Shown: positions 1 through 17,208, counted from the first letter of the stretch. The stretch: DNA of 17,208 nucleotides from a virus (IMGVR_UViG_2698536369_000010); one strand, 5' to 3'. The notes: generated from the sequence alone by a model not told the origin. Made by a program: numbers and translations.

Positions 1-62
1 CCGGCAGAAGCAGAAAAAGCTTATTATGCTTCCATCGGCAACGATGATCTGGCAGCCTGAGT

Positions 63-2675
63 TCACAGATAAAACACTCTCCAGGAAACCCGGGGCGGTT
101 CACCTGCCTGAATATCGAGCTGCTCGTTTTTCTGTCTGACAATTTCTTTTTCCCGTTCCAGAGCATCATTCAGAGCCTGCATTTTCTCTTGAAAAACATG
201 ATCTGACATTCCACGGGATTTATCTGCATAGTCACGTTCAAGTTGCAGACGCTGATTGTTATATCCATGTTCAATCCGCAGTAATTCCTGCTGGCGTTGC
301 TGATTTTTATCGCCAACCCCATAACCAGCAATCTGAATATCATACCCCTGCTGACGATTATCAATCGAAGCCTGCAATGAATCACGCCATGCTGTTATTT
401 CGGCGGATTCCTTGATTAGCCTGTTATTTTTTTCAATCGCAACATTTTTCTCCATCAACGCGGTTATTTCTTCCCGGTGTAAGAGAAGCGATTTCTGATC
501 CTGGGTTAATTTCGTTGATGGTCGTGACTCTAGGTCGGCAATCCGCTGACGCCACTTAACCAGTTCCTGTTCAGAGGAACTTAATTTAACGGTCAACTCA
601 GCTTGTGAACTTAGTAACGCATTCTGTTGATTCAGATGATCAATCATTCGTTGGGCTGCATCATCAGAATAACCTTTCGCCTTTGGTTGCTTTGGATCTT
701 TATAACGCTCATTTATTTGAGCGATAAGATTATTATATTCTTCCTTTGAATACTGATTCTTTAGCTTTTCCAGTTTTGCAAGTTCACTAGCTCTCTGCTG
801 CTCCCGGGTCTGATATTGTTTTGAAAAGGCATCTGCTCTCTGTCTGAGTTCAATTCCTTCCTGTTGTCGCTTGTTGTAATCGTTTATTGATGAATTTAGT
901 ACGTCCTGAGCAATTTTTTCTGCTTGAAGTACGCCCAATTGCTGCTTTAATCGTGCCAGCCTTTTATTTTGAGCTCCGCCATCTCCAATGCCACCTAACC
1001 CGAAAACTCCGGGTCGGGTATTTTTTTCTATTTCATCAATTTGACGGAGAACATCTGAGATTTTTTGATCAAGGGAGGCCTCACGGCCAATATCCAGCAT
1101 GGAATCCCATGCCCATTTTGCGGAGTCTGCGACAGCTTTCCATGCAGTCTCAAGATAACCAAGATTTTCTTTAATCTGGTTGGTGCGCTGGATCATTGAG
1201 GATGAGTATTCTTCTGTCGCAATGCGGGCGGCCTCCTGCTGGTTCCCTTCATCCTGTAGCGCCTTAATCTGGTTATAAGTCGCAAGTGTCAGAAAATGGT
1301 ACTGATCATTAAGTTTTGATATGGCACTGACAGGATCCTTTGCAATTTCATTGAAGTCATTAACCAGTTGTTCGGTTGATATTCCTGTTACTTCGCTCGT
1401 TTTTACTATCGCTGTCGTCACTTGCTCCAGCGAACTGCTCGCTACCTTTCCCGAACGCACAAGCTGATTTAATACTGCCGCCGCAGCACCAGTTGTCGAA
1501 TCAGCCGCATTCCCGGCACGTTGAGCTATATCGCCCAATTGCCCGCTGGTTGTCCCCAACTGATTTCCGGTAAGAATAAGAGATTTATTAAATTCGTCCT
1601 GCTCCTGAGAGCCTTTATAGTAAGCCAGTCCTAAGACCCCAACGGCTGCTGCGGCCAGGGTAAAAGGATTAATTAATCCCAGCACATAAGAACCTACACC
1701 TTTGATCGCCGGGCCAATCCCACCGAACATATCTTTTAGCTGGCCGCCCTGCTGCATTAACACCATAAATGGCGACTGACCAGTGGACAACCCAACAACA
1801 ATATCCGTCATTTGTGCAGGCAACATGCGCATAGCAAAAGCCGTTTGTTTTGCCGACATTCCGGTTTTGCTTAATTGTGATTGAGTAACCTCAAGCTCAC
1901 TCCGCATAGCACGAAGTTTTCCAGAAAGCTCCTCATACATTTCAGGAGAAAGCATCCCCTTAGCTTTTGCTTCATTGAGCTGTTTCTGTTGTTCTACCAG
2001 ACGATTAAAAGCAGTTCCGACAGGATCAAGTTGAGCAATCAGACGTTGCAAAGCAACAACCTGTTCATCATGCGCTTTTGCTGCTTCTCGCTCTGCCTGA
2101 GCCTCTCCGGTAAGCTCTCGCCGTGTTTCCTGTATTTTTCGGCTATAATTCTCAAACTGAGAACCATTTATTTTCCCGGATGCAAACGCAGCATTAAGTT
2201 CATCATGCTGTTGTTCAAGATTTCTTAGCGCCGCAGCCAGAGGGTCGATCTTGTCCAGCATTCTTTGAAAGGCCTGAGCCTGCGCTTCCTGCTGGGCGGC
2301 AGCAAGTTTTCCGGCCTTCTCGGCTTCTCTCTGCGCTTGCGCAACCCCGCTCAATTCCTCTGTGGTTTCATTAAGTTTACGGACAAGAAATTCATATTCT
2401 TCTTTATCAATAAGCCCTTTATCGAAAAATTTCTTTAATTCAGAATAGCGTCGACCGACAGTATCAATTGCGGCACCAACTGGATCAATAGTTGCTTTTA
2501 ATTTTGCGAGCGCGTTCTTCTCATCTTCTGTTGCCTTAGTCACTTTCCCTGCGCTATTTGCAGCAGTTTCCCCAGCCTGCGTCATTTTGACTAATGAGGA
2601 GGTCAGATTGTCAGCATTATTTTTCGCTCCAGTGCTATCAATAATTATTGCGAGACGCGAGGTTTGCTCTGCCAT
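63..2675 (-). CDS. Tail length tape measure protein (870 aa)
   Basis: Largest ORF, immediately downstream of the G/GT chaperone pair. N-terminal coiled-coil repeats, central hydrophobic/Gly-rich segments (e.g. [21 protein letters not shown]), Q/K/E-rich C-terminus. AGGAG about 9 nt upstream of the ATG at 2673-2675. Confidence 0.85.
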
Positions 2676-2690
2676 TTATTAAAACTCCTG

Positions 2691-2720
2691 ACAACAAAAA
2701 ACCCACCGCGAAGTGGGTTT
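2691..2720 (-). terminator. Candidate intrinsic terminator/attenuator hairpin just upstream of the tape measure RBS
   Basis: Minus strand reads AAACCCAC-TTCGCG-GTGGGTTT followed by TTTGTTGT: a perfect 8-bp inverted repeat with a 6-nt loop and a U-rich tail. Stem is only half G:C. Confidence 0.35.
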
Positions 2721-2840
2721 CAGGCGACATAATAGTAGATATAGCGATTACGAGGCCACGCAATGCTTTTCTCCAGGAGCATCATCGATTTAATTAAAGA
2801 CACCATCACATCTCTGTAATAGAGTGTACGTAATTAACAA

Positions 2841-3610
2841 CTACACACACTGCTCCTGAAAATACTGGTCATCCAGTGCAAAGATCACTGCTTCAAATTC
2901 ATCGCGCTCAATCAATACCGGATGAGTGGCTAAATATTCATTTATCTCTGTCAGAGATAAAGGCAAAGGCACCCCAGCCATTCCAGCATAACGTCGGGCA
3001 CGGGATATTACCGAATAGGCGTACAACAACTCCTTAAGCACCGGGTCTATTTCTGGTTCCGGTATCGGTGGCAACCTGAGTTTTTCTCGCTTCCATCTTG
3101 CCTTTTCCCCCCTTTCTCCCCCGAACTCCGATAACCACCGCTGGGCAGCTATGGCTTTTTTATCGTATCCTGCTTCTGCTGCTCTTTACCCTGGGCGATG
3201 CTGGCTGCTTCTGCAAGGATCTGCCAGTACAACTCTGGATTCTGCTTAAGCAGCGCGATCCCTCGTTCTGCCGTATATTCCAGTGCAACCTCAACACCAT
3301 TAACCAGTTCACCAACCCCTTTCCAGTCTTTCAGCAGATAACGAGCGGCATTATCAATGAGTAAATCATCAACAGAATCCACCTCGGAAACCTTTGAAAT
3401 ATCAAACTCCTTCGTTCCGACGTGCAAACTGGCATCCATTTTCTCAATGTGGCGACGGATTAATGCATTACGGGAGCGATACTGATCGTTATCGCTGCTT
3501 GCCACCAACAGTTTTAACCCGTCTACAGGTTTTAAGTCCTTCATTGGCGTAAACCAGCGTTCTCCACCAATGATAATTTTCTGATTAAGAATAAACATCC
3601 ATAACCTCAT
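2841..3610 (-). CDS. Tail assembly chaperone GT fusion made by programmed -1 frameshift (T extension covers 2841-3161)
   Basis: The -1 frame is open from 3185 down to 2841 and overlaps the 3' end of G. Slippery A AAA AAG is in the correct X XXY YYZ register in the G frame. The T-frame has no own start near the overlap (first start in the six-frame track is a TTG at 3074). Confidence 0.6.
3149..3610 (-). CDS. Tail assembly chaperone G (about 153 aa)
   Basis: Sits between major tail protein and tape measure. Ends ...GKEQQKQDTIKKP with the slippery heptamer one codon before its TAG stop. Two possible ATG starts (3610 or 3598), both with G-rich SD. Confidence 0.7.
   Translation of the reverse strand: MRLWMFILNQKIIIGGERWFTPMKDLKPVDGLKLLVASSDNDQYRSRNALIRRHIEKMDASLHVGTKEFDISKVSEVDSVDDLLIDNAARYLLKDWKGVGELVNGVEVALEYTAERGIALLKQNPELYWQILAEAASIAQGKEQQKQDTIKKP
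3155..3161 (-). other. Programmed -1 ribosomal frameshift slippery heptamer A AAA AAG
   Basis: Minus-strand ACG ATA AAA AAG CCA TAG; the heptamer is identical to the E. coli dnaX slippery site. Position matches the conserved G/GT frameshift of long-tailed phages. Confidence 0.6.
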
Positions 3611-3690
3611 TCAATGCGTCCCCCTGTAGGGCAGTACCACAGGAGGAATAACGGAAAATCAACTAATCGCCTCAGCACTGGCTTTTGCGA

Positions 3691-4620
3691 TCACGGCAGC
3701 CGGGGAATTTTTTTTCTGGTTATCGTAGGTGCTTCATCTGCTGCGGTAATGCTCAATTGAACCTGGATAATGTCGCTATTACCCCCATCAGGCCATTCAC
3801 CTGACACCTGAACCTTCGGGAAACTGAAAGTGTATGCCCCCTCTCCATTCGAAAGCGTGAAGCTGAACGGAACTGTTTCTCCAGTCAGTGTTTTACTCCA
3901 GATTTCCCACGCGGCTTTAGACCATGAAAGCGTCACCGTACCGGACGGTGTAAAAGTAGTCGGAATATTTGCTCCTGCATAAGGCGAGCCAGTCCCGATA
4001 CAACGCTGTGTCTGGAGTTTGTTATCGAACTGAATATCAAAACTGTCGATACAAAAACCGTTACCTCCGGCAACACCATTCAGGCTTACTGCTGAAACCT
4101 CCTTAAACGAATAACGTAGCTTTCCTGCACTATCCACAGGTTCGCCTTTGATAAAATTCGTATCATCGGCCTTTGATTCCCAGTCCAGTCCGGCAAAGGT
4201 TACGGTCGCTGTAATATCGCCGTCGTTAGGGATCTGCATTTTCCATGAGCCAACCTGCGCTCCTCTGACGACAGAGGCAATTCCGACATCGGACGCATAG
4301 GTCGCCAGAGAAAATGTTATTCGCTCATTCCCCATTGTCAGAGAATCGCCTGACCATTCCGCGCCGAAACAGGATGCAAGAAAATCATCATGTTGACCCC
4401 AGCGAAATTTGGTACCAACATCACCGCCGACATCCACAGTGCCAGGCGTCGCCCCCTGAGCCATCCGGGAGCCACCAATCTCATTATTTTCGCCTTTATT
4501 CTGGGTGGGTTTTACTCCCCAGCTTGTGCGTTTTAATAAACTCCAGTCACCACTTGCTGGCGTAGTGCCTGCAACCGTCTCCCGGATAAATGCCGAGATA
4601 ACCTTTGCACCTGAACTCAC
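3691..4620 (-). CDS. Major tail (tube) protein (309 aa)
   Basis: Directly upstream of G/GT and downstream of the head-tail joining genes. GTG start at 4618-4620 preceded by AGGAGG with a 5-nt spacer. Gly/Thr/Ser-rich beta-type composition. Confidence 0.65.
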   Translation of the reverse strand: MSSGAKVISAFIRETVAGTTPASGDWSLLKRTSWGVKPTQNKGENNEIGGSRMAQGATPGTVDVGGDVGTKFRWGQHDDFLASCFGAEWSGDSLTMGNERITFSLATYASDVGIASVVRGAQVGSWKMQIPNDGDITATVTFAGLDWESKADDTNFIKGEPVDSAGKLRYSFKEVSAVSLNGVAGGNGFCIDSFDIQFDNKLQTQRCIGTGSPYAGANIPTTFTPSGTVTLSWSKAAWEIWSKTLTGETVPFSFTLSNGEGAYTFSFPKVQVSGEWPDGGNSDIIQVQLSITAADEAPTITRKKIPRLP

Positions 4621-4646
4621 AGGAGCCTCCTATGTCATTAATTGCG

Positions 4647-5039
4647 CTAGAGCGCGCGATATGGAATTTGAAGATTAAGCTGGAACCAGCCATTCTTTTC
4701 GCCAACGGCTATTGAGGAAACAGCCTGGTAACTGAGACGATCGTCATCCTGAAACTCAAACAGTTCCCGCAATTTATCGGCTGTCTCAGTAATGAGTTTT
4801 GAACCAGAACCTGCGGGGACAAATAACTGAATAATGATTATCCCCGTGCGATAAACAACCGGCCCCGCGCCAATTTCATTAACTCCAGCCTGCCCGGGAA
4901 TATTACTTAACCGCGCCCAGATTAACTTACCGGAAGGATCGAACGTTGGCCCGTTCGGATACAATACGTCTTTTCCATCAATAATCGTCTGTGCCGTCAT
5001 TCTGGAAATAACCGTATTTCTGATTTCAGTAAACTTCAT
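4647..5039 (-). CDS. Putative tail terminator / tail-tube joining protein (130 aa)
   Basis: Last small gene before the major tail protein. Its ATG overlaps the upstream stop as ATGA (translational coupling). Confidence 0.45.
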   Translation of the reverse strand: MKFTEIRNTVISRMTAQTIIDGKDVLYPNGPTFDPSGKLIWARLSNIPGQAGVNEIGAGPVVYRTGIIIIQLFVPAGSGSKLITETADKLRELFEFQDDDRLSYQAVSSIAVGEKNGWFQLNLQIPYRAL

Positions 5040-5416
5040 TTGTAAGCCTGTAAAACACCATGAAAAGCGTTGGCATACACGCCAGTTGGCGCTTGTTGTG
5101 AATGACCGTTTTCAAGAGCCTCTGCATAAGGAAGGTTATTCTGGATATAAATAACCCCGTAATTTGCAGCTTTCGAAATAACCCCGATCCCACGCTGAAC
5201 AGCAATCGTACCGTTCGGATCCACGTTATCAGATATACCAAAATCGGGATGCTGTAACGACACCAGGTTGTTATTTCTGAAACGTCCGGTATCAACCGGA
5301 GCAGCAATATCAATAGCAGTAAGAATCTGCATAGCGATGTAGCGAATCTTCAGCCCTACATCTTCCTCAATCATCCCGGCAAATATTGACGGTTCTATAT
5401 CCCATGCCTTTGCCAT
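5036..5416 (-). CDS. HK97 gp10-like tail component / tail completion protein (126 aa)
   Basis: Contains the PVDTGRFRNN motif that I recall as characteristic of the HK97 gp10 family. AAGGAG SD 7 nt upstream of the ATG. Confidence 0.55.
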   Translation of the reverse strand: MAKAWDIEPSIFAGMIEEDVGLKIRYIAMQILTAIDIAAPVDTGRFRNNNLVSLQHPDFGISDNVDPNGTIAVQRGIGVISKAANYGVIYIQNNLPYAEALENGHSQQAPTGVYANAFHGVLQAYK

Positions 5417-5800
5417 TTACGCTCTCCTTAACTGGATAGAGTAAACTGATGCGGAAGGATCTACACTTGCTGTAATTACCTCGTATCGTTGTAACTGCCT
5501 TGATACAGGATCATAAATCTCAATAATATGGTCGACAGCTGGTTTATCCGTAACCTCGCATACCAGAGCGGTTAATTTAAGGTCACCATGCAAAATATTA
5601 ATCCCATCAATTCTGCCCAGCTTATAACGTGTCAACACGCCTCGCCCGGTATAGATTGCGGTGGATTCGCCGCCAGTTTCCGTCACAGGATCCCAGTGCC
5701 GGTGCGTAACGTAAGAACCAGAAAAATCACTCACGGCGTCCGCTAAATCCTCATCAAAAGCAGCGGCAACCTCTGACTGAATCTCTTCACGAAGCCCCAT
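5417..5800 (-). CDS. Putative head closure / head-tail joining protein (127 aa)
   Basis: Position in the connector block. Start overlaps the upstream stop as TAATG. Confidence 0.4.
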   Translation of the reverse strand: MGLREEIQSEVAAAFDEDLADAVSDFSGSYVTHRHWDPVTETGGESTAIYTGRGVLTRYKLGRIDGINILHGDLKLTALVCEVTDKPAVDHIIEIYDPVSRQLQRYEVITASVDPSASVYSIQLRRA

Positions 5801-6195
5801 TATCCCCCCCTCACAACCCTGACTTGTGAGCGACTAAGTCCGTACGGTTTCAGCAGTGCTATCGCAAGCTGTAAATCGGGTTCAAGCAATGCAGTGCTGT
5901 TTGCTGGCAACTCAGAAAATGATTTCGATACACTGACCCCGTCAGCCGACACGGCTTTACTGATAACAACGCCAGAATCATTTTTCTGCTGAAACAACTT
6001 ACCGAATGAGGCAATTCTGGCTGCATATGCTCCCGCAAGTTTTACCTCTTCCGGAATACGGGATGGGTTAATTTTCAGGTTGAAGCCATTAAGCCAGGCA
6101 TTAGCCATTAAAACAGCTTTATTTTTAGCGTTCTCACTCGTCCAGGCGTTCCCAAACGCATTATCAACGTCATCACAGGTCACGTAAGTGATCAT
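5800..6195 (-). CDS. Putative head-tail adaptor/connector protein (131 aa)
   Basis: First gene of the connector block after the capsid gene. AGGAG SD 6 nt upstream of the ATG at 6193-6195. Confidence 0.4.
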   Translation of the reverse strand: MITYVTCDDVDNAFGNAWTSENAKNKAVLMANAWLNGFNLKINPSRIPEEVKLAGAYAARIASFGKLFQQKNDSGVVISKAVSADGVSVSKSFSELPANSTALLEPDLQLAIALLKPYGLSRSQVRVVRGG

Positions 6196-6198
6196 GTG

Positions 6199-6375
6199 TT
6201 ACTCCTGAGTTTTCCAGCCCATAGCCTTCCAGTTGTCAACTTCATCAGGATGAACATTAGCGATAGTTGGTGCGCCGGGAAACATCTGATAATCGGTCAC
6301 CATAACCACTAACTCAATTTGCGTTTTTTGTGCGGCTTCACGCTGTGCTCTTTGCTCTTTAGTTAATCCGGCCAT
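6199..6375 (-). CDS. Small hypothetical protein (58 aa; MAGLTKEQRAQREAAQKTQIELVVMV...), below the ORF-track size cutoff
   Basis: Hand-translated from the sequence. ATG at 6373-6375 is preceded by GGGGGG; its last codons (CAG GAG TAA) form the SD of the next gene. Confidence 0.45.
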   Translation of the reverse strand: MAGLTKEQRAQREAAQKTQIELVVMVTDYQMFPGAPTIANVHPDEVDNWKAMGWKTQE

Positions 6376-6384
6376 ATGCCCCCC

Positions 6385-6407
6385 ATTAAAAATGGGGCCG
6401 AAGCCCC
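6385..6407 (-). terminator. Candidate intrinsic terminator downstream of the major capsid gene
   Basis: Minus strand GGGGC-TTCG-GCCCC followed by ATTTTTAAT, 10 nt after the capsid stop codon: all-G:C 5-bp stem with a UUCG tetraloop and a U-tract. Confidence 0.45.
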
Positions 6408-6417
6408 GTTTGAATGT

Positions 6418-7557
6418 TTAACCAAGAATCAGACAACCATGTGCCGGCTTCACTGATGAAACACCCCATGCCAGTCCAACTTCATAGCGCACCTGGCGAT
6501 ACTGACGATACAGTGCAATCTGGAACGTAATCCCTGAAATCGGGTCCGTAACATTCATTACATCATCAGCATTATCGCCACCTTCCGGCATTGCCGGAGT
6601 ACGGGATGCCAGCAGAAACGCGTTGCGATCAAACGCCATATTTGCAGTAAAGGCCCCAACAACTGTGATGGCAGTATCATCGGCCAGATCCTGACGCAGT
6701 CCGGGCGCTGCAAGAGTAATCAGATTGCTGGTCGCTGCTGCCACAACATACTGATTCGGATCACCAGCGAACGTAACAATCTGACCTGCAGAAATACTCC
6801 CCGAACCAGTATCAATGGAAATAAGAACATCGCCTTCTTTTTTCTCTCCATTCACGAGATAACCAGTTGCAGCAACCTTTGGCGCTCGTTTCACACCTGC
6901 CGAACTGTGAATATTGAATCCCTCCAGACGCCCCAACACGCCCTCACGCAGTAGCTGTTCAGTGCCGGATTCATTCACTTTAAACAATACAGACTGTTTT
7001 CCGCGCAAATTAGCAATGGCAGTGGAGCCAAGCACCATCTGCAGATCGGTTGTCGGTGCGCCGTTATCCTCCAGAACCTGACGAGCCAGAGCAGCATCAG
7101 AAAGATCATCTTTAACACCAAACGGCGTTGTCCCTGCGGTTCCCACGGCGCGGGAAGCACCGAAATACAACGCACCAAGATCAGCCTCAACCTCGTTTGC
7201 AAGGGCGCGAAAAGCCTGCTTGAACTGATCAGCCAGAATGGTGTTGTAAGTCCCTGAAGGGCCAAGAGCCAGTTGTTCTTCACCATTCCATTTAACCGGT
7301 GCCATTTTGGATTTAGTAATTTTTACATCAACAGTGCCAATATTCTGATCACCGGTATTCGGAGCTGACGGCCCCGGTACGATATCTTCGGTTTTCGCCT
7401 CAGGCGCAACTGGCGCGGTTACCGTCTGATCTTTTGCTGCGGCGTCAGCTTTTGCGTTTTTTGCTACCGCAGGGATAAAACCTACCTGCTCACGGGATAC
7501 AACATCCAGGGCGGTATAAATAGTCGGGATCAACCCGGTCAGGGTATTTCCAGCCAT
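6418..7557 (-). CDS. Major capsid protein (about 379 aa from ATG at 7557)
   Basis: Large gene directly after the scaffold gene, followed by a terminator. The track ORF starts at an upstream TTG (7650); the ATG at 7555-7557 (MAGNTLTGL...) has an AAGGA SD and is preferred. Confidence 0.75.
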   Translation of the reverse strand: MAGNTLTGLIPTIYTALDVVSREQVGFIPAVAKNAKADAAAKDQTVTAPVAPEAKTEDIVPGPSAPNTGDQNIGTVDVKITKSKMAPVKWNGEEQLALGPSGTYNTILADQFKQAFRALANEVEADLGALYFGASRAVGTAGTTPFGVKDDLSDAALARQVLEDNGAPTTDLQMVLGSTAIANLRGKQSVLFKVNESGTEQLLREGVLGRLEGFNIHSSAGVKRAPKVAATGYLVNGEKKEGDVLISIDTGSGSISAGQIVTFAGDPNQYVVAAATSNLITLAAPGLRQDLADDTAITVVGAFTANMAFDRNAFLLASRTPAMPEGGDNADDVMNVTDPISGITFQIALYRQYRQVRYEVGLAWGVSSVKPAHGCLILG

Positions 7558-7655
7558 AATTAAATATTCCTTAAAAATTTGCGTAATTGTGAATAGATGG
7601 AGTAATGAGCTATCCAGCCCTGACACCAGCTCCCATCCGGAAGCTGACAAATGTG

Positions 7656-8420: not shown

Positions 8421-8477
8421 ATTAGTACCTGGTTTAAGTCTTCCGACAGTTACGCTGCTCACCATCCGGATCGCAGC

Positions 8478-8504
8478 AATAAAAAAGGCCACCCGAAGGT
8501 AGCC
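8478..8504 (-). terminator. Intrinsic terminator between the head morphogenesis gene and the scaffold gene
   Basis: Minus strand GGCTACC-TTCG-GGTGGCC-TTTTTTATTG: 7-bp stem with one G.U pair, UUCG tetraloop, U6 tract, about 20 nt after the upstream stop. Confidence 0.6.
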
Positions 8505-8524
8505 TGTTGTAATAAATGATTTAT

Positions 8525-9640
8525 TTAAATCCCTGCTTTTCTGAATACCTGTGCATCACGCTCACGGAGCTGCTTCAGCGTCAGCCATTCGCCTTTATCG
8601 GTGTAAAATTCATCTGGCGACATACCACCATCCCGAATCAGCTTTGCTCGGCTTTCCCCCACAATCTGTTTTTGTCTGGTGTAAGGCTGACGCAAAAACC
8701 ATTCCCTGTAGGTTGTATCTCCGGCCACCACGCCATCCATGCTGGCCCGCTCAGCCGGGGAAATATCGCGAACATCAATACCCAGTTCCTTCGCTGATTT
8801 CAGAATGAACGTTTCCGTTGAGCGGCAGCAGAAATGAATTTTTCCCGGCCCCTGCAAATAAGGCACGCTGTGACCTACAGGTTTATTATTCAGCGTATAT
8901 TTGAGGCGATCCCTGATTCGACATTGTGGCGTAGTACGATTATCAAGCGTTGATAACCATTGCTTACCCTTAATCAAATCATTATTCGCGCTGGCAAAAC
9001 TCTCACGGGCAGTAGCAGCAAGATGTCCAACCGCTGTTTTTGCAATGCTGGCCGCATTAGCCCGGCTCATCTGCAATGCACCATCCTGAAATCCCTTACT
9101 GACATGTCCCCGAATTTTTCTTGCGATCTGCTCATTGGTATCCCCCAGCAAAAAACCCTGACGCACTGTATTTGTTATGCGTCTGAGCCGATCCGCCTCA
9201 AGATCTGAGGCCCACTCACTGAGCAGTCGTCCCTGGAATGGTCGCGCCATTGCAGCGGCATAAAGTGCATCAGGAGAGATACCAACCAGAGGGTGAACAT
9301 CAGCAACAAAATCAGGTAGCATAGAATCAAACAGACTTAACTGATAACCAGCCTCATAAATTGCCAGCTCGTTCAGCTCTCCGGAGAGACTGGTAAACAT
9401 GCTGTTAATAGCAGTGCGGTTAACCTCTCTGACGCTCGCCAGAAGTGACTCCAGGCGCTTAACGGTAAAACTACCTGGATCGAGGCTGTCCAGTGCTATC
9501 AGCAGGCGAGCAGTAAGTTCCGCATCGCTGTCATTCAGTATTTTCACCATTCTGGCAGCCACGCCAGTGCTATAGCGGGATATCCAGACTGCATGAGCAA
9601 TTGATTCATCACGCAGCCGTTCATTCACGGTTTGCATCAT
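8525..9640 (-). CDS. Head morphogenesis protein, Mu gpF / SPP1 gp7-like (371 aa)
   Basis: Immediately after the portal gene. Contains the conserved stretch WLSTLDNRTTPQCRIRDRLKY that I associate with this family. Start overlaps the portal stop. Confidence 0.8.
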   Translation of the reverse strand: MMQTVNERLRDESIAHAVWISRYSTGVAARMVKILNDSDAELTARLLIALDSLDPGSFTVKRLESLLASVREVNRTAINSMFTSLSGELNELAIYEAGYQLSLFDSMLPDFVADVHPLVGISPDALYAAAMARPFQGRLLSEWASDLEADRLRRITNTVRQGFLLGDTNEQIARKIRGHVSKGFQDGALQMSRANAASIAKTAVGHLAATARESFASANNDLIKGKQWLSTLDNRTTPQCRIRDRLKYTLNNKPVGHSVPYLQGPGKIHFCCRSTETFILKSAKELGIDVRDISPAERASMDGVVAGDTTYREWFLRQPYTRQKQIVGESRAKLIRDGGMSPDEFYTDKGEWLTLKQLRERDAQVFRKAGI

Positions 9641-11027
9641 TGATTTCCATCAGCATTACACTCTGATTTTTTAATTCATCGATCACTTCCTCTGGACGGG
9701 AATCCTGATCGATAAATTTCAACGCCTGCAACACCCGAACCGCATCAATCTGACGTATATCACCGCCCTGACGCAATGACTGAACAGCCAGCGCGGAGGA
9801 TGAGTCAAACACCTGGGCAGATACATCCAGTTCAGTGCGCACATCCACATTGCCACCGCAACTCTCTCCGCTCCATTCCGCCATTATCTGGAGAATATTA
9901 TCGAGGGCATCTTCGAGGGAGTTCGCCATTGTATAAAGCGGCGAGTGTTCCTGCATCCGCTCTTCATTAGTCTGATCAACAGATTTGGTGGATGTATTTT
10001 CAGCCCGCAGAAGTTTAGCGCCGGCATGACGCATCTGATTTTCCAGCTTCTCAAGTGATGTTTCGCCAGATTCTATCGCTGCGCCACTATGTTCAACATA
10101 TTCGAGGCCATTTTTTGTTCTGTCCTCAAAAATCGTAGCCGTGGATGCACCAACCGTCAGTTCTTCATTCCTGTCCAGCCCGTAGGCCACCAGCAATGGA
10201 ACGCGGGCAACATGAAGAATATTGTCCTGCTCGCTCTGGCTTTGCCAGTGCTTGATATTCAGCAAGCCAAGATTAAGCAATGGCGGTGTACCACGCATAA
10301 ACCCTGTTTTCTTCGTATACAGTGTTACCAGAGGAATATCATCACGGCTGGTATTCCATGACTCATGAAGCATCCAGACAGATTCGCCATTAGTACCTTC
10401 GCTGCGTCGATAAATTTCTACTCGACGGGGCATAATATGGCGGATCTGCTCCACCTTCTTCTGCCCGAAATCATCACCATCAATAATGATGACCTCTTTT
10501 ATACGCAAATCAGTGAGAACAACTTTCCCTTTTTCAACTTTCGATTTCCATCCAATAACCTGGCGTGGATTCAGCATCGTAACGTACGGGCGACCACCGG
10601 CCGCGTTTTCATCGGCTTTTGTCCGAATCTCGTTCATATCCGTTCGTGGATAGTCCACCAGCGCATGTGCCACACCATACTGAAATGCGAGACTGAAAAA
10701 TTGCTGCGCCCACACATCCAGTCGGCTCCCCTCCATGTCGATATTTTCTGCATATTCCCTGATTTTTTCCGGCGTTTCCTCACTCAATACTGTCGGCTCT
10801 GCAAATATGCGCCCAATATTTTGTTTGATGCTTTCTTCATACACAGGAAGTAACGTAGCCACAGACAGGCGTTTTTTATAAGCGTCTTCATCTTCATTAG
10901 GCCATTTGGGGAGATAATTTTCCCCCTGCCTGCGCATTTCAAGCGTACCGCCCATCAATGCGTCGTTAATATCCCACGCCTCCAGCATATCGTTATAGTC
11001 GAGGTTGGGTGTTGATATATCAGCCAT
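9621..11027 (-). CDS. Portal protein (468 aa)
   Basis: About 470-aa acidic protein directly downstream of the large terminase and upstream of the F-like gene. Assignment is mainly positional. Confidence 0.7.
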   Translation of the reverse strand: MADISTPNLDYNDMLEAWDINDALMGGTLEMRRQGENYLPKWPNEDEDAYKKRLSVATLLPVYEESIKQNIGRIFAEPTVLSEETPEKIREYAENIDMEGSRLDVWAQQFFSLAFQYGVAHALVDYPRTDMNEIRTKADENAAGGRPYVTMLNPRQVIGWKSKVEKGKVVLTDLRIKEVIIIDGDDFGQKKVEQIRHIMPRRVEIYRRSEGTNGESVWMLHESWNTSRDDIPLVTLYTKKTGFMRGTPPLLNLGLLNIKHWQSQSEQDNILHVARVPLLVAYGLDRNEELTVGASTATIFEDRTKNGLEYVEHSGAAIESGETSLEKLENQMRHAGAKLLRAENTSTKSVDQTNEERMQEHSPLYTMANSLEDALDNILQIMAEWSGESCGGNVDVRTELDVSAQVFDSSSALAVQSLRQGGDIRQIDAVRVLQALKFIDQDSRPEEVIDELKNQSVMLMEINDANRE

Positions 11028-11029
11028 AA

Positions 11030-12331
11030 TTAAATCCGAAGTGATGTGACTCTTCCGGTCGGTTTGACAATAGGGAATTGCTTAACGATGAAATAACCTC
11101 CGGCATCATTCGGGTGATCATTGCCAGATTTTTTATCAGGCTCCCCCTTATCATCCCAGACCTGTTGCTCCAGAGATTCGGCATATACCGGACAACGCTT
11201 CACATTAACTTTATAGCGACGCTCACCATTGGCATTGCAGAACATTGCATTCATTGAGTTAACGCGATCTTTTACTGGCGGGTTCGAGCTGTTCACCACA
11301 ACGTTAAAACCTGCCTGCTTAAGCTGGGCTATATCCGTCGTACTTGCGTTACTTGATTTTCTGGAATCTCCGGAAGCATCTGGATAAATATAAATCTCCC
11401 TCACTTTCCGGTAATCATGCCCGTCATACAGCCAGAAGCGTTCTTTAATGAGGCGGATCATATCCGGCGTATCGTAGGCATTGATGATTTCAGTTACCGC
11501 ACATGGAAGCCCCAAACGCAGCACATGGACGATTCCCGCCATCTTTCCAACGTTAAAATCCATCCCAATATAAATCGGCTCCCCTGGCTGCTCCACTTCT
11601 TCGCAATTATTCAGTTTCCGGTCAAACTGATGGTAAACAGTACCACTTGTCAGGTTAGTAAACCGTCCTAGAAGATAGGCTTTAATCAGCTCTGGAGGGT
11701 ATGATTCAAGAAGTGAAGGAATGTAATCTGCTGGCAGGTTCTTTTCATTATCGAAAGTAGATGCCTGCACCAGACCATACAGTGAGGCCAGCTCTGTTTT
11801 TTCACGCACGGCTTTAACAAACTGCTCGTAGACAAATTTGAATCCTTCCGGCGTGGTTGTAACGTCAATACCGTTGCGAAGTCCATCAATCTTATAACGC
11901 ATACGCGCAATTATCTTGCGCCACGCCGTTCTGGCTTTTTCCTTCGGCAAAATGTCCAGTTCATCCACCAGCGCATTACCAATTTTGAAACCGACGATCG
12001 TTTGTGGCTTCTCCATCGATCTGCAGATAGTGGTTCCCCGATACTGGCGTCCGTAATAAAAGTGAACCTCTTTATTTCCCTCATTAATTTTTACGTTCAA
12101 TCCCCAGTCAGCAGCAACTTCTTCCACTGTAGGGTAAAAAATATCGCGAATTTGGGGATACGTTGGCGCAAAATATCCCTGATTTATACCTGGATGCTCC
12201 CAAATCCCCTTGCATATGCCGCCACACCCAACCCATGTTTTGCCCGAGCCAAAACCAGCAATATAGGCTTTAAATTTATGGGGCATTGAAAGAAATCGCG
12301 CCTGAGGCACATTAAGCGTCGGAGAGATCAT
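11030..12331 (-). CDS. Terminase large subunit (about 433 aa from ATG at 12331)
   Basis: Walker A motif GFGSGKT near the N-terminus and acidic nuclease-type motifs (IGMDFN, IYPDASGDS) in the C-terminal half. AAGGAG SD 8 nt upstream of the preferred ATG; the track start is an upstream GTG. Confidence 0.9.
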   Translation of the reverse strand: MISPTLNVPQARFLSMPHKFKAYIAGFGSGKTWVGCGGICKGIWEHPGINQGYFAPTYPQIRDIFYPTVEEVAADWGLNVKINEGNKEVHFYYGRQYRGTTICRSMEKPQTIVGFKIGNALVDELDILPKEKARTAWRKIIARMRYKIDGLRNGIDVTTTPEGFKFVYEQFVKAVREKTELASLYGLVQASTFDNEKNLPADYIPSLLESYPPELIKAYLLGRFTNLTSGTVYHQFDRKLNNCEEVEQPGEPIYIGMDFNVGKMAGIVHVLRLGLPCAVTEIINAYDTPDMIRLIKERFWLYDGHDYRKVREIYIYPDASGDSRKSSNASTTDIAQLKQAGFNVVVNSSNPPVKDRVNSMNAMFCNANGERRYKVNVKRCPVYAESLEQQVWDDKGEPDKKSGNDHPNDAGGYFIVKQFPIVKPTGRVTSLRI

Positions 12332-13406
12332 CTTCATCACTCCTTAATCTGGCATCAACCACATTAATATTGATCGCCACAGGCTGGGGATGTTCATTAT
12401 CCTCCACCGTTTCGATCTCTTTGCGCAGCTTCTGGTTCTCTATTCTGCGCCGTTCAATTTCCAGTTCCTGTAGCCGCTTATCTGCACATAATGCCCCGCC
12501 AGCAGAAAGCAAACGCAACAATTCACGCCGGGCGGCAGCCTTATCCTCCAGCAGGATCTCAACACCGTATTTTCCGAGCTTTGACCCTGCATATAATTGC
12601 CGCGCATCCCCATCAAGCAGTGTGGTATCAGCCATATAAAGCTGTCCTGTTCCCTCACCGCAGCACTTCGGGCAATCAGGATTGGGTATGGCGTTATCAA
12701 CAAAGCCGAGGCCTCCATATTCCGGCTCGGGTTTACCATCTCTGGAGGCCTGTGCCGCAGCCTTATCGAATTCTGCAATATCACGCCACTGGTAGAGATG
12801 ATTCTCGCCCCAGCAATAACGGCAGTTAACACGGCGAAATTGTGCCAACTGATTGGGGTCGGCCTGGACAATGGCCATCAACTGGCTCACCAGTAAATCC
12901 AGGTCTGCGGTATAGCGTTTCTGGTACTGATTGCGGAAGTAGCTGATAGCACGATAAACCCTGGCATTTCTAAGCATACGGCTGGCGTTGCTGTTAGCTG
13001 TCGCACCTTGCCCCTCATAACCAGCCAGTCGGTATGCCTCTGTCGGCTTTTTCCCCTGAGCAACCAACATGGCGAATTTTGCCTGCTGGTCAGAAATACC
13101 GAATTCATCGGGGCAGAACGAAATTTCTTCCGTGTCCCCCTCAATCAGGAGTGCATCGGATACAGCCTTTTTTTTCTGAGATTTTCCGTTCTGCCTTTGC
13201 GCAGTCTGCGCAGTTTTTTTTCGCGCACTTTTTTGCGCAGTTTTGCGCATTTCTTTCTGCGCATTTTTCGGAGTTTTTTTGATGTAACGACGGGCTGTTG
13301 CGTAGTTCAGTCCCCTTGCTTCACACCATGCCACCGGAGATATACCGGAGCGGGTGTATTCAGCAATATACTCCTGCTGCAACGCCCCCCAGTCCGGTCT
13401 GCTCAT
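12312..13406 (-). CDS. Terminase small subunit, atypically long (364 aa)
   Basis: Directly upstream of and overlapping the large terminase. N-terminal HTH-like segment, a Lys/Ala/Gln-rich basic linker, a core resembling small-terminase signatures (ISDQQAKFAMLVAQGKKPTEAYRLAGY...ASRMLRNARV), and an inserted Cys cluster CRYCW...CPKCC. Confidence 0.75.
   Translation of the reverse strand: MSRPDWGALQQEYIAEYTRSGISPVAWCEARGLNYATARRYIKKTPKNAQKEMRKTAQKSARKKTAQTAQRQNGKSQKKKAVSDALLIEGDTEEISFCPDEFGISDQQAKFAMLVAQGKKPTEAYRLAGYEGQGATANSNASRMLRNARVYRAISYFRNQYQKRYTADLDLLVSQLMAIVQADPNQLAQFRRVNCRYCWGENHLYQWRDIAEFDKAAAQASRDGKPEPEYGGLGFVDNAIPNPDCPKCCGEGTGQLYMADTTLLDGDARQLYAGSKLGKYGVEILLEDKAAARRELLRLLSAGGALCADKRLQELEIERRRIENQKLRKEIETVEDNEHPQPVAININVVDARLRSDEDDLSDA
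13167..13280 (-). repeat. Phased array of six GCGCA motifs separated by T/A tracts, inside the terS 5' region
   Basis: Plus-strand GCGCA at 13198, 13207, 13222, 13234, 13244 and 13258, with T runs of 4-8 nt between them. Encodes the basic linker KNAQKEMRKTAQKSARKKTAQTAQ. Confidence 0.6.
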
Positions 13407-13409
13407 CAG

Positions 13410-13661
13410 TTAGTCCTGATTTTTATCCACCCTGAGTAGTTCGCGCAGAGCAAAGGCATCCCCTTTTCTGGCAAGCTTAAACAATGCCGCTCGTAACTCG
13501 GCTTCACCTTTCGCTCTGCCCTTACGGATGGCCGCATAAAAATCTGTCATTGCTTCCCGATTTTCTTTCAGTCGGTTCAGATCAACATCCAGAACGTCAG
13601 CGATTTGTTGTGCAGTCATCCGGCACGCTGCCAGAGACTCGACTTTCGAATACGGAATCAT
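13410..13661 (-). CDS. Small hypothetical protein with HTH-like N-terminus (83 aa)
   Basis: Ends 3 nt before the terS start. GGGGGTG SD upstream of the ATG at 13659-13661. Overlaps the 3' end of the upstream gene by 65 nt in another frame. Confidence 0.4.
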   Translation of the reverse strand: MIPYSKVESLAACRMTAQQIADVLDVDLNRLKENREAMTDFYAAIRKGRAKGEAELRAALFKLARKGDAFALRELLRVDKNQD

Positions 13662-14529
13662 TTGTCACCCCCATTGATATGCAGGGTGTCTTCTTCCTGT
13701 ATTTTTCGTGAAGGATTTTTACTGCAGCGTTGTTCCAGGTGACCTGATGGTGAATGCGTTTATGGCTGGCACCCATCAGTGAGATTTTTACGCACGACGG
13801 CGAATACATGACGGAGTAAAAACTTTTAACGTAGGTTCCGGAATCCAGATACAGCTCGGTCATTCCGCCGCTGTTTTTCTGCGTCTGTTTCTGCCCTAAC
13901 TGGACAGCACCGATCGTCATAAACAATTCACCACAGCGACCGAGATTCGTGTACGTATTCACATCCTCGTTAATGCGCCCCATGAATGAGAACGGTCGAT
14001 CAACCGAACAGATAAAGCTGTTCATTGCCTTGCGTTTCACCCACGAAGCATGGCCGCCATTGTCACCAAGAAAATCCCCGCCCTGCGACATAGCGATGGA
14101 AAGCGCGGGTATTGATTCGTAATACGCCAGCATTTCAGAAAGGATCGCATCCAGTTTCCTTATCGGGAAATAGGCCTGGTCATAGTTGCGATCCACCCGA
14201 AACTGGAACTCGTGATAATCATCATCGAGCTGAATGAAGTATTTACACCCGACCAGTTTTGCCAGGTCGAAACAGGCATTACGGGCGTAAAAAATTGAGC
14301 GGCGATCACCAAAATTATCGGCTTCGTCAAAACGACTGGCAATATCGGCTTTGGAAAATACCAGCACCTGTTCACCAAATTCAGCCATGTACTGATGCCG
14401 TGTCTTATCTTCATCATCAACAACGATAAAAATTTTCCCGGTATAGCCAGCACGACGCAACGTCCGGTAAGTCAGAACTTTGTCCGGTCGCCCGTGAGTC
14501 AGAATAAAGGCGCAAAAATCATCACGCAT
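13597..14529 (-). CDS. Uncharacterized protein with a GT-A-like glycosyltransferase signature (about 310 aa from ATG at 14529)
   Basis: Hydrophobic strand FCAFILTHGRPD, then KIFIVVDDED, then about 60 aa later YFIQLDDDY: the spacing of a GT-A Rossmann-like fold with a DxD motif. Preferred ATG overlaps the ParB-like stop (ATGCGTGA) and follows GGAGGAGGAGG. No predicted membrane segments. Confidence 0.5.
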   Translation of the reverse strand: MRDDFCAFILTHGRPDKVLTYRTLRRAGYTGKIFIVVDDEDKTRHQYMAEFGEQVLVFSKADIASRFDEADNFGDRRSIFYARNACFDLAKLVGCKYFIQLDDDYHEFQFRVDRNYDQAYFPIRKLDAILSEMLAYYESIPALSIAMSQGGDFLGDNGGHASWVKRKAMNSFICSVDRPFSFMGRINEDVNTYTNLGRCGELFMTIGAVQLGQKQTQKNSGGMTELYLDSGTYVKSFYSVMYSPSCVKISLMGASHKRIHHQVTWNNAAVKILHEKYRKKTPCISMGVTNDSVFESRVSGSVPDDCTTNR

Positions 14530-15313
14530 ATTCCTCCTCCTCCCCGCCATGCATGATCTCCACCATGCGCTGCGTCATTCGGACAAATCCATTTTCAATA
14601 GCCTGCTGATAATCAATGATCACCAGCGCCGACTCCTCGAAAAGGCACTGAATTTCAGCGGGGGCATGAGCGTAATAGTCCGCAATTCTGCTGAAATTAA
14701 ACACTGTGTGACGTTCTGCCGCACACAGGAGGAATTTCTCAATATCAGGATCAAGGGACGCCGAACGTATCCGGCTGATCAGCTCCTGAGTTTTCGTATC
14801 GTCGTACAGTTCACTGATATCCGGTTTACCGCCCGACGGCTCATAAACAGGCGTATCAATTTTCGTCGTATACGGCTCCTCCTCATTTCCTGTACCGGGC
14901 AAAACATCCGTCAACAGTTCATCAATTTCTGTCGGGATGAAGCCTGTCAGGGAGACATCAAAATCAGCATTGATTAGGTCCGACAGCTCCATCCGCAACA
15001 GATCTTCATCCCAGCCAGCATTCATCGGCAGGCGATTATCTGCCAGGCGGTACGCCTTTTTCTGCTCATCCGTCAGGCCAGACAGAACAATGACCGGAAC
15101 AGAATCCATTTTGAGCATTTCAGCCGCCATAACACGACCGTGACCCGCAATAATTTCGCCCTTTTCGTCAATCAGCACCGGATTAGTCCAGCCGAATTGC
15201 TTAATACTTTCTACCAGTTGTGCCACCTGCTCAGTACTGTGCGTCCTGGCATTGTGCGCATACGGTGACAATTCTTGTAATGGGCGATAGACTATCTTTA
15301 ATTTCTCGCTCAT
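14522..15313 (-). CDS. ParB/Srx-like nuclease-domain protein (263 aa)
   Basis: N-terminus (YRPLQELSPYAHNARTHSTEQVAQLVESIKQFGWTNPVLIDEKGEIIAGHGRVMAAEMLKMDSVPVIVL) matches the ParB N-terminal pattern seen fused to phage DNA methyltransferases, including the DVSLTGF linker. The C-terminal 150 aa are acidic with no methyltransferase motifs. Position matches ynaK of Rac but identity was not verified. Confidence 0.75.
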   Translation of the reverse strand: MSEKLKIVYRPLQELSPYAHNARTHSTEQVAQLVESIKQFGWTNPVLIDEKGEIIAGHGRVMAAEMLKMDSVPVIVLSGLTDEQKKAYRLADNRLPMNAGWDEDLLRMELSDLINADFDVSLTGFIPTEIDELLTDVLPGTGNEEEPYTTKIDTPVYEPSGGKPDISELYDDTKTQELISRIRSASLDPDIEKFLLCAAERHTVFNFSRIADYYAHAPAEIQCLFEESALVIIDYQQAIENGFVRMTQRMVEIMHGGEEEEYA

Positions 15314-15329
15314 ACAGCCTTGCTTTATG

Positions 15330-15368
15330 AATAAAACGCACCCCAGCAGCCAGTGCTACTGGGGGCGG
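15330..15368 (-). terminator. Intrinsic terminator downstream of trkG
   Basis: Minus strand CGC-CCCCAGTAGC-ACTG-GCTGCTGGGG-(U)GCG-TTTTATT: about 13-bp G:C-rich stem with one G.U and one bulge, then a U-tract. The plus-strand version has a C-A mismatch, favouring minus-strand function. Confidence 0.6.
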
Positions 15369-15450
15369 AGGTGTTGCTGGTAAAGTTAGGTATTGGATCA
15401 ATGAGTGAGTCAACATAATATTAAACTCACAATTATAAATCAGCCATATA

Positions 15451-16908
15451 TTAGGAGCGCCAAAAAAAACCTGAAAACAATATAATAACAGGATAAATTT
15501 CAAGGCGACCAAGAATCATAGCTATGCACATTAAATATTTTGCAATGTCATTAAGCACTCCGAATGACGATGCAGTAGCCCCAAAACCTAATCCCATATT
15601 ATTAATACATGCAGCCACTGTTGCAAATGATGTAAGAAAATCATATCCCATACCATTTAACACCAGTATAAAAAACACCGTGAAGAGAGTATAAAGAAAA
15701 AAGAAACTCCATACAGACCTCATTACACGATCTGTAACTATCTTCCCTCCTACATTTACACTTAACAACGCTCTGGGATGAGAAAGTTGATTTATCTCGT
15801 GTTTGCTTTGTTTGAAAAGTATAAGAAATCGAAGTGACTTAATTCCACCACAGGTTGAACCGATACATCCCCCAAAGAAACTTGACAACAGCAAAAACAC
15901 TATCGTGTGCGTGGGCCAGTTTGCATAATCCTGCGTAGCTAAACCATTATCAGTGAGCATGGAGCTGGCAAGAAAAAACGAATGAATAAAACTTCCATGC
16001 AAGTCATACATACCTATATGCCAGACCTGGAAAGAGGTAACAATGATCACCCCTAAGGCTATTAACAGAAAGAAACGAAGTTCAATATCTCTGATTAAAG
16101 GTTTTATCGTTTTTCTGCTAATAACAATATACCAAAGAGTGAAGTTGAAAGCCGATAGCAGGGAAAAAGAACCAGCCACCAGCTCAACCAAATAGTTATT
16201 AAAATATCCGATACTCTCGCTATGAGTTGAGAAACCACCAAGCGAAACTGTGGAAATCCCGTGACAAATAGCATCAAACAAAGGCATTCCTGCAAGTCTA
16301 TAACAGACAATACAAGCAATACCTAATAAAGAATAAGTTATCCACAGTGTCCGTGACGTATCGGCCAGGCGGGGAGTGAGTTTGTCATCCTTAAATGGCC
16401 CCGGCATTTCTGACTGATAAAGCTTTGCACCACCAATACCCAATAATGGCAATACTGCAACCGCCAGAACAATAACTCCTAAACCACCTATAAAATTTAA
16501 CTGTGACCGATAGTACAAATATGCCCGAGGTAATGAACTAACATCATCAATTACAGTTGCTCCTGTTGTTGTTATTCCAGAAACCCCTTCAAACAGAGCA
16601 TCAATGAACGTTAAATTAAGTTCTGAGTCAATCCATAAAGGGAATGCACTAATAACAGAAAACAAAATCCAAAACATTACAATTATAATAAACCCATCAC
16701 GGGTACGTAATTGAATGCCAGATTTCTTAGTTGTATACCACGCTCCGCCACCAATGCAAAAAAATATAACGAAAGTTATAAAGAAAACGAACAGGCTTTT
16801 TTCTTTATAAAACAATGCTACAACCATTGGTGGCAACATTGAAAGACTATAGAGCCAAACCAGGAACCCACACATATGAGTAACAACTCTTACATGAGAT
16901 GTATTCAT
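15451..16908 (-). CDS. trkG: Trk-family potassium uptake membrane protein TrkG (485 aa from ATG at 16908)
   Basis: Multi-pass membrane protein with repeated pore-type segments; recognised as TrkG, which lies in the Rac prophage of E. coli K-12 next to the Rz/Rz1 genes. Clearly AT-rich compared with neighbours. An upstream in-frame TTG (16926) with an AAGGTGG SD would give 491 aa. Confidence 0.9.
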   Translation of the reverse strand: MNTSHVRVVTHMCGFLVWLYSLSMLPPMVVALFYKEKSLFVFFITFVIFFCIGGGAWYTTKKSGIQLRTRDGFIIIVMFWILFSVISAFPLWIDSELNLTFIDALFEGVSGITTTGATVIDDVSSLPRAYLYYRSQLNFIGGLGVIVLAVAVLPLLGIGGAKLYQSEMPGPFKDDKLTPRLADTSRTLWITYSLLGIACIVCYRLAGMPLFDAICHGISTVSLGGFSTHSESIGYFNNYLVELVAGSFSLLSAFNFTLWYIVISRKTIKPLIRDIELRFFLLIALGVIIVTSFQVWHIGMYDLHGSFIHSFFLASSMLTDNGLATQDYANWPTHTIVFLLLSSFFGGCIGSTCGGIKSLRFLILFKQSKHEINQLSHPRALLSVNVGGKIVTDRVMRSVWSFFFLYTLFTVFFILVLNGMGYDFLTSFATVAACINNMGLGFGATASSFGVLNDIAKYLMCIAMILGRLEIYPVIILFSGFFWRS

Positions 16909-17046
16909 ATCTAAATATTCTTTCAATTATAACCACCTTGCTGCAATATTATGATTATACTGTATAAAATTTAACTCCTCTTAGATCTTACTTCACTGTT
17001 CCTTATGAAACAATCATCAAAATGAATCATATTGTAGTTAAGATTT

Positions 17047-17208
17047 TACTTTAAACACTGCTCGGTTATGTATTGCTGAGCACCTTCAAGTTGGGCCTGC
17101 ATCATTACCAGTCGTTCCCGGAGGGTGAAATAATCCCGTTCAGCGGTGTCTGCCAGTCGGGGGGAGGCTGCATTATCCACGCCGGAGGCGGTGGTGGCTT
17201 CACGCACT
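17047..17208 (-). CDS. Spanin inner-membrane subunit Rz, C-terminal fragment (start lies beyond the window)
   Basis: Minus-strand translation ends ...ADTAERDYFTLRERLVMMQAQLEGAQQYITEQCLK*, closely matching the lambda Rz C-terminus as I recall it. Confidence 0.8.
17105..17208 (-). CDS. Spanin outer-membrane lipoprotein Rz1, C-terminal fragment, embedded in Rz in another frame
   Basis: Translation ...CVKPPPPPAWIMQPPPDWQTPLNGIISPSGNDW* carries the proline-rich Rz1 C-terminus, nested out of frame inside Rz. Confidence 0.7.
   Translation of the reverse strand, partial: CVKPPPPPAWIMQPPPDWQTPLNGIISPSGNDW

Follow-up and report, generated by a model that had tools for sequence, protein, structure and literature searches.

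We analysed a 17,208-nucleotide stretch of viral DNA (IMGVR_UViG_2698536369_000010; the window, by which we mean the whole stretch, positions 1 to 17,208), which is identical to the whole of contig CYBM01000052.1 (17,208 bp) from the draft Escherichia coli assembly GCA_001284545.1. Every gene of the window lies on the minus strand, and profile searches (Pfam, PHROG) give a coherent lambdoid siphovirus late region. With a probability of about 0.9, we read the window as a late-operon segment (packaging, head, and proximal tail) of a lambdoid siphovirus prophage, holding a Rac-type module in a copy disrupted by an insertion sequence (IS). Both ends of the window lie in repeated sequence, an IS on the left and the Rz/Rz1 genes on the right. 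Rz/Rz1 lysis genes are common to many lambdoid prophages, and short-read assemblies break at repeats; the two ends are assembly breaks rather than biological boundaries, and the contig contains no prophage ends. The features are given below from right to left, which is the order of transcription (ORF, open reading frame).

17046-17208, minus: 3' end of Rz (spanin); Pfam Phage_lysis, 6.6e-20; aligns to K-12 rzpR/rzoR; the contig breaks here.
About 17105-17208, minus: 3' part of Rz1, embedded in Rz; identified by alignment to K-12 rzpR/rzoR.
15451-16908, minus: trkG; Pfam TrkH, 1e-144; 99.6% amino acid identity to K-12 TrkG.
15341-15364, minus: terminator-like hairpin 3' of trkG; 10-bp stem with 7 GC pairs, then a T run.
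14522-15313, minus: ParB/Srx-like protein of 263 amino acids; Pfam ParB_N; phrog_620, 1.7e-90.
13597-14529, minus: TAGT-family (PF20691) glycosyltransferase of GT-A fold; Pfam, 6e-35; phrog_842, 1.5e-103.
13410-13619, minus: small conserved ORF with a weak TerS-like match; phrog_309, 8e-23; annotated in L001, L002, and L010.
12312-13406, minus: terminase small subunit (TerS); Pfam Terminase_2; phrog_51, 6.4e-75, full length.
11030-12331, minus: T4-type terminase large subunit (TerL); Terminase_6N and 6C; length as in relatives.
9621-11027, minus: portal protein (DUF4055); Pfam DUF4055, 7e-45; phrog_145, 4.5e-165.
8525-9637, minus: minor head (head morphogenesis) protein of MuF/SPP1 gp7 type; Pfam Phage_Mu_F; phrog_241, 1.5e-182.
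7656-8420, minus: scaffold-like DUF6651 protein; Pfam DUF6651, 1.1e-60; phrog_206 (head scaffolding protein), 3.1e-22.
6418-7557, minus: major capsid protein of the P22-coat family; Pfam P22_CoatProtein; phrog_283, 1.6e-136.
6394-6407, minus: terminator-like hairpin after the capsid gene.
6199-6375, minus: 58-amino-acid protein; length as in L001, L002, L005, and L010.
5800-6195, minus: head-tail adaptor Ad1; Pfam/PHROG; length as in the same four copies.
5417-5800, minus: head closure protein Hc1; Pfam/PHROG; length as in the same four copies.
5036-5416, minus: tail completion/Neck1 protein; Pfam/PHROG; length as in the same four copies.
4647-5039, minus: tail terminator; Pfam/PHROG; length as in the same four copies.
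3691-4620, minus: tail tube, A8 allele, 309 amino acids; Pfam Phage_tube_2 over residues 4-293.
3149-3610, minus: ydaY, G-type tail assembly chaperone, 153 amino acids from the first ATG; phrog_313, 4e-46; Pfam Phage_YdaY.
2841-3161, minus: predicted T part of a G/GT chaperone, entered by a -1 frameshift; weak Pfam Phage_TAC_18 match.
2841-3074, minus: 77-amino-acid ORF inside the T-part frame.
103-2675 (ORF 63-2675), minus: tape-measure gene, N-terminal 858 or so of 1077 codons; Pfam TMP_2, 9.6e-82, and TMP_4.
1-102, plus: right end of an IS1203/IS629-type (IS3 family) element; transposase stop at 58-60; terminal inverted repeat ending ...GGGGCGGTTCA at 102.

Seventeen of 19 genes are equal in length to their counterparts in four other copies of the module (L001, L002, L005, and L010). 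TerS, TerL, portal, scaffold, capsid, and connector genes are all full length, with family matches that span the whole proteins. TerS, TerL, the portal, and the MuF protein make up a packaging set of the headful type. The initial annotation had credited the region with the full packaging, head, and tail set; this stands for packaging, head, and connectors, but not for the tail, since in relatives the genes for the tail tip and fibres (M, L, K, I, J, Lom, Stf, and Tfa) are situated beyond the left end of the window. Rfam (at the gathering threshold) and ARAGORN gave no hits within the window, and NCBIfam holds no equivalog for the glycosyltransferase or the chaperones.

The Rac prophage of E. 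coli K-12 has the order rzpR/rzoR, trkG, ynaK, ydaY, ynaA, lomR, with the same order and orientation as in the window, so the order Rz/Rz1-trkG-ParB-like does follow K-12 Rac as the initial annotation had stated. By blastn, window positions 15060-17208 (rzpR/rzoR, trkG, ynaK) match K-12 Rac at 99.40% and positions 1741-3500 (ydaY, ynaA) at 99.83%; identity is thus high outside trkG too, which removes the objection that the likeness to Rac might be confined to that gene. No K-12 sequence matched the window between 3500 and 15060. The two K-12 segments abut, overlapping by 2 nt, and K-12 therefore lacks window positions 3501-15061 (11,561 bp). The joint of this 11.56-kb deletion can be read to the nucleotide and lies at a TT microhomology. 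Lost with it are the genes for the tube, connectors, capsid, scaffold, MuF protein, portal, TerL, TerS, the small ORF, and the glycosyltransferase, together with two thirds of the ParB-like gene. Of that gene, K-12 keeps the first 86 codons as ynaK. K-12 YdaY consists of the C-terminal 116 amino acids of the chaperone, and its start codon is supplied from the ynaK side. In a second K-12 deletion, tape-measure codon 312 (window position 1741) has been joined to lom at a TG microhomology, and the ynaA/tmpR stump corresponds to window positions 1741-2675. The ynaK-ydaY joint was found in 348 of 5426 complete E. coli genomes, and among those listed almost all are K-12 laboratory strains.

We conclude that ynaK, ydaY, and ynaA are deletion stumps of the ParB-like, tail chaperone, and tape-measure genes, and that K-12 Rac is a deletion derivative of exactly this late module. 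The suggestion that this region reveals the origin of the K-12 remnants is borne out, with 99.4-99.8% identity on both flanks and both joints readable. As for mechanism, a single illegitimate deletion fused 5' codons of the ParB-like gene (ynaK) to 3' codons of the chaperone gene (ydaY) in K-12 Rac, and a second removed the stretch from tape-measure codon 312 to lom, leaving ynaA.

The chaperone region itself has the layout of a programmed frameshift. Shortly before its stop codon, ydaY has a slippery heptamer, A_AAA_AAG, at 3161-3155 in the X_XXY_YYZ register, and the -1 frame after the heptamer is open down to 2841. The resulting 256-amino-acid G/GT fusion matches phrog_313 in one stretch (positions 13-246 of 258). 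We predict on this basis that ydaY and the 77-amino-acid ORF form a tail chaperone pair of the lambda G/GT type with a -1 frameshift site. K-12 (L003, 16622-17290) retains the slippery site and the entire T part, which is without annotation there.

The late region had been described as apparently uninterrupted, and this is not the case. Window positions 1-102 are 99% identical to three annotated IS1203 copies in strain 23CRST009 (L004) and match an IS3-family transposase end in L002; they contain a terminal inverted repeat ending in CA and the 3' end of orfB, the single IS end within the window. IS1203 directly abuts the tape-measure gene and splits it at about codon 858 of 1077 (859 amino acids align to the 1077-amino-acid protein of L005); the tape-measure ORF runs 11-12 codons into the element and then stops. 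This site is intact in 711 of the 712 complete genomes that carry it, and the exact IS/tape-measure junction of the window is absent from complete RefSeq E. coli genomes. IS1203 also lies at the same CCT target (window positions 100-103) in strain 23CRST009 (L004, 18714-20024), where the 3-bp target is duplicated around it. The elements of the two strains are in opposite orientations, and the insertions are therefore independent.

The second lesion is in the tail tube gene, which has a run of eight A residues (A8) at 3708-3715 where most copies have nine (A9), seen as a 1-nt gap against L001 and L002. The A8 allele encodes 309 amino acids against 320, the last 16 residues being replaced by 5, and the tube gene with this allele is marked 'frameshifted' by the Prokaryotic Genome Annotation Pipeline (PGAP) in enterotoxigenic E. 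coli (ETEC) H10407. The window is a short-read draft contig ending in repeats, and the tube lesion lies within a homopolymer, so one might take both lesions for sequencing or assembly artefacts and the region for intact in the cell. We consider this quite unlikely. The A8 allele is real, because it recurs in 36 of 492 genomes, all 36 complete and the H10407 reference among them (A9, with its 320-amino-acid product, is found in the great majority of the remainder). At the other lesion, a canonical IS end abuts the gene at the CCT target that is used with a 3-bp duplication in another genome.

These lesions bear directly on the proposal that the late region is intact and that the window belongs to a complete relative of Rac which might be inducible. 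Active Rac-like phages do exist (PMC6731689), intact versions of the module are found elsewhere, for example in L005 with its 1077-amino-acid tape measure and 320-amino-acid tube, and the packaging, head, and connector genes of the window are full length, as in the other copies. However, the proposal is contradicted by the IS1203 break in the tape-measure gene at window position 102/103; the tube gene has a frameshift allele, and neither tail-tip genes nor an integrase or repressor are in the contig; we regard it as highly unlikely. The window copy has instead begun to decay, with a tape measure split by IS1203 and a minority tube allele, and we infer that it would most likely make no functional tails. 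Some points weigh against our reading of a disrupted copy. The backbone, the distal tape measure, and the tail-tip genes of this strain are on other contigs. The A8 change sits downstream of the Pfam tube domain, which is complete, and may or may not impair the tube. The contig break at the IS end shows that reads join the tape measure to the IS, but does not by itself exclude a mixed population.

Of 5426 complete E. coli genomes, 693 contain 80% or more of the window. In L001 and L005 the module lies on Rac backbones, with intR, recET, racC, kilR, and sieB, adjoining uspF/ompN. In H10407 (L010) and 23CRST009 (L004) the module, including trkG, lies at att-lambda (bioA-ybhB) with lambda-like early genes, and the Rac early region (recET, racC, kilR, sieB, racR-ydaST), which adjoins the module in L001 and L005, is neither in H10407 nor in the window. 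A remnant of the module adjoins appY-ompT at the DLP12 site in 23CRST024. Judged by these placements, the late module is a mosaic unit carried on Rac (at ttcA) and on other lambdoid backbones rather than one specific to Rac.

The contig might come from a lambdoid prophage at another site (att-lambda or the DLP12 site) that shares the late module, and not from Rac at ttcA. This is a possibility that we take seriously, although we hold it to be the less probable outcome. Besides the placements in H10407, 23CRST009, and 23CRST024, it is favoured by the A8 allele and a 3-nt allele that the window shares with H10407, with 0 gaps between the two. The latter is a 3-nt indel polymorphism at window position 14532, in the overlap of the 3' end of the ParB-like gene and the 5' end of the glycosyltransferase gene, and its shorter allele is common to the window and H10407. 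Identity between the window and other copies ranges from 98.7 to 99.8%, and two copies on Rac backbones come closest (99.71-99.80%, with H10407 at 99.12%). This speaks for Rac but is not diagnostic, because a third Rac copy reaches only 98.74%. Since identity does not sort by backbone, the backbone of the window copy cannot be told from the contig, and our reading of the window as a disrupted late segment of Rac type refers to the module.

Between the lysis and packaging genes, trkG differs from its surroundings in base composition (GC content 0.37-0.42, against 0.46-0.51 in the rest of the window). With its own terminator, it looks like a low-GC moron. The only promoter-like site before it, at 17026-17055, is weak. 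We observed that trkG is retained in every decayed variant examined.

The ParB-like and glycosyltransferase genes (13597-15313, minus strand) overlap each other and immediately precede TerS. In Lactobacillus phages phi jlb1 and c5 the same pair stands close before the terminase genes, and in halovirus HHTV-2 it stands about 2.9 kb before the annotated large terminase; identity is about 38-46% for each protein. Outside the window, coordinates of the pair are L007 (4274-5849), L008 (4196-5858), and L009 (90-1713). All 35 diverged IMG/VR loci examined have a full-length ParB-like ORF upstream of the glycosyltransferase gene and on its strand, and the two genes abut or overlap in 34 of them. A large terminase follows the pair within about 1.5 kb in nine of ten diverse loci; seven of these nine terminases pass Pfam cut-offs and two are weak matches, and the matches fall into three Pfam terminase families.

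The glycosyltransferase has an invariant DDD motif, and its AlphaFold model is a GT-A fold with GT-A matches in PDB; a PDB sequence search with the glycosyltransferase profile gave no meaningful match. The model of the ParB-like protein shows an N-domain and a helical C-domain joined by a disordered linker (136-169), and the N-domain resembles those of phage ParB-methyltransferase fusions. In PADLOC, the sole match was likewise of the ParB domain to ParB-methyltransferase fusions, with no defence-system match for the glycosyltransferase or trkG. A ParABS partition system is rejected: there is no ParA in the window, and the match to TIGR00180 reaches 38 bits (cut-off 58.45) and is confined to the N-domain, so that both the partner and the full ParB architecture are missing. 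PGAP gives the intact 263-amino-acid ParB-like ORF three different annotations: a full gene, a 'ynaK' pseudogene without the C-terminus, and this pseudogene accompanied by a separate 'transcriptional regulator' (copies at window 14522-15313; L001, 30961-31218; L004, 37072-37863; L010, 30844-31635). The cause is apparently that the ORF was named after K-12 ynaK, which is truncated.

An architecture of N-domain, linker, and C-domain has been reported for ParB-like activators of phage thymine dioxygenases, 5mYOX (PMC13229309), and TAGT glycosyltransferases are described from T-even phages (PMC13390438). The pair resembles the 5mYOX and ParB systems in that a ParB-like protein of the same architecture is encoded beside an enzyme of DNA-modification type. 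Unlike the 5mYOX and T-even systems, it adjoins terminase genes and has no dioxygenase, hydroxymethylase, or methyltransferase nearby in the window, phi jlb1, c5, or HHTV-2. No domain of a hydroxymethyl-pyrimidine source (5mYOX/TET, dCMP/dUMP hydroxymethylase) was detected in the window ORFs, and no such source is annotated near the pair in phi jlb1, HHTV-2, or c5. Membership in a TET/JBP-linked pathway fails on its defining feature, since no dioxygenase or hydroxymethylase is nearby. An uncharacterised gene pair that accompanies terminase genes in viruses of both bacteria and archaea could matter more than the relation to Rac.

The ParB-like gene is also a site of recurrent deletion. Many E. 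coli assemblies encode chimeras in which ParB residues 1-165 are followed by different late-region proteins. The recurrent endpoint is nucleotide-precise, at window position 14817/14818 on the minus strand (...GGTAAACCGGATA^T^CAGTG...), and at least nine different downstream partners are joined to it across E. coli strains. At the DNA level the partners are the glycosyltransferase gene, the tube gene, gpK, Lom, pinR, and sequence beyond the prophage end, with 2-5 nt of microhomology; Tfa, Hc1, and possibly the 58-amino-acid head protein were seen as partners at the protein level only. Among 20 distinct truncations (residue range 150-263), some 8-9 share the hot-spot point and 15 fall in codons 153-167. 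All hot-spot variants keep the lysis genes, trkG, and the ParB(1-165) stump.

Several further observations concern these joints. A second recurrent joint lies near ParB codon 140 or so (window position about 14893), at the end of ...CCCGGTA, and a looser cluster of joints, about 15 nt wide, lies in the glycosyltransferase gene at window positions of about 13845-13865, around CTGGATTCCGGAACCTACG. CCGG occurs within 10 nt of several joint sides, and a GATATC (EcoRV) site is present at the hot-spot joint; the two motifs were noticed post hoc and are unproven, the first in a small sample. Protein P0213 is a chimera in the reverse of gene order (TerL 1-236 joined to ParB-like 98-263) and points to a joint formed by tandem duplication or rearrangement in some strain. 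The sequence GTAAACC resembles a gix half-site, but a Pin/Gin-type crossover is rejected, as the joints lie 3-4 nt beyond the would-be core. Insertion and later excision of an IS is likewise set aside, as about 100 intact loci are free of an IS at the site and the chimeras show no IS read-through peptides, and a DNA hairpin at the hot spot is rejected (z = -0.08).

We infer a site-specific break or stall at the hot spot. A more far-reaching scenario, which we offer as speculation and think rather unlikely, combines the two subjects. The ParB-like/TAGT pair might be a packaging-linked DNA-marking module whose place directly before the terminase genes is conserved in viruses as different as E. 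coli prophages, Lactobacillus phages, and a haloarchaeal virus. A site-specific nick or break, or a protein roadblock, linked to the pair or to terminase pac cleavage might then create the 14817/14818 hot spot, where Rac-type prophages would repeatedly lose their late genes while keeping trkG. A nucleotide-precise hot spot that shapes the decay of these prophages could, like the gene pair, be of more consequence than the main finding.

The main reading, that the window is an IS-disrupted late segment with a Rac-type module, concerns a module that roughly one complete E. coli genome in eight carries; the finding as first posed is ordinary and matters little. Its useful products are the exact K-12 deletion joints and the correction that the window copy is IS-disrupted.

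Several known phages and prophages can be set beside the window. In the phage collection, the only records with the region are those of prophages recognised in genomes of E. coli clinical isolates (ON4705xx-ON4706xx; bioRxiv 10.1101/2022.06.29.498070) and that of Salmonella phage SPF_0923. The nearest cultured phage by capsid is Klebsiella phage 5 LV-2017 (83% amino acid identity), followed by HK639 (75%); both are cultured lambdoid siphoviruses, related to the window at the protein level only. HK639 has the same type of head and proximal-tail module in the same order, with no ParB-like or glycosyltransferase gene annotated just upstream of its terminase genes and no gene annotated as trkG.

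Rac gene content is variable across E. coli (PMC5700373), and full-size Rac-like prophages have been published, namely CP-933R and Sp10 of O157:H7 (PMC4632033, PMC6379469) and the LT-II prophages (PMC5917428). KingRac, a 46.8-kb Rac-like phage, replaced K-12 Rac at ttcA in the mouse gut, is inducible by mitomycin, and forms particles that were seen by electron microscopy (PMC6731689). CP-933R/Sp10, the LT-II prophage Rac-SA53, and KingRac are larger ttcA prophages, some of them active, with KingRac, CP-933R, and Sp10 likened at the level of the whole prophage only. Rac-SA53 shares only 4% of the window, at 88% identity, and its late module is thus another one. It is already established that K-12 Rac is a deletion variant of larger Rac-like prophages, some of which are active. 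At the level of the late module, K-12 Rac and the window differ in their damage: K-12 has the two deletions, whereas the window is without them but has IS1203 in its tape-measure gene.

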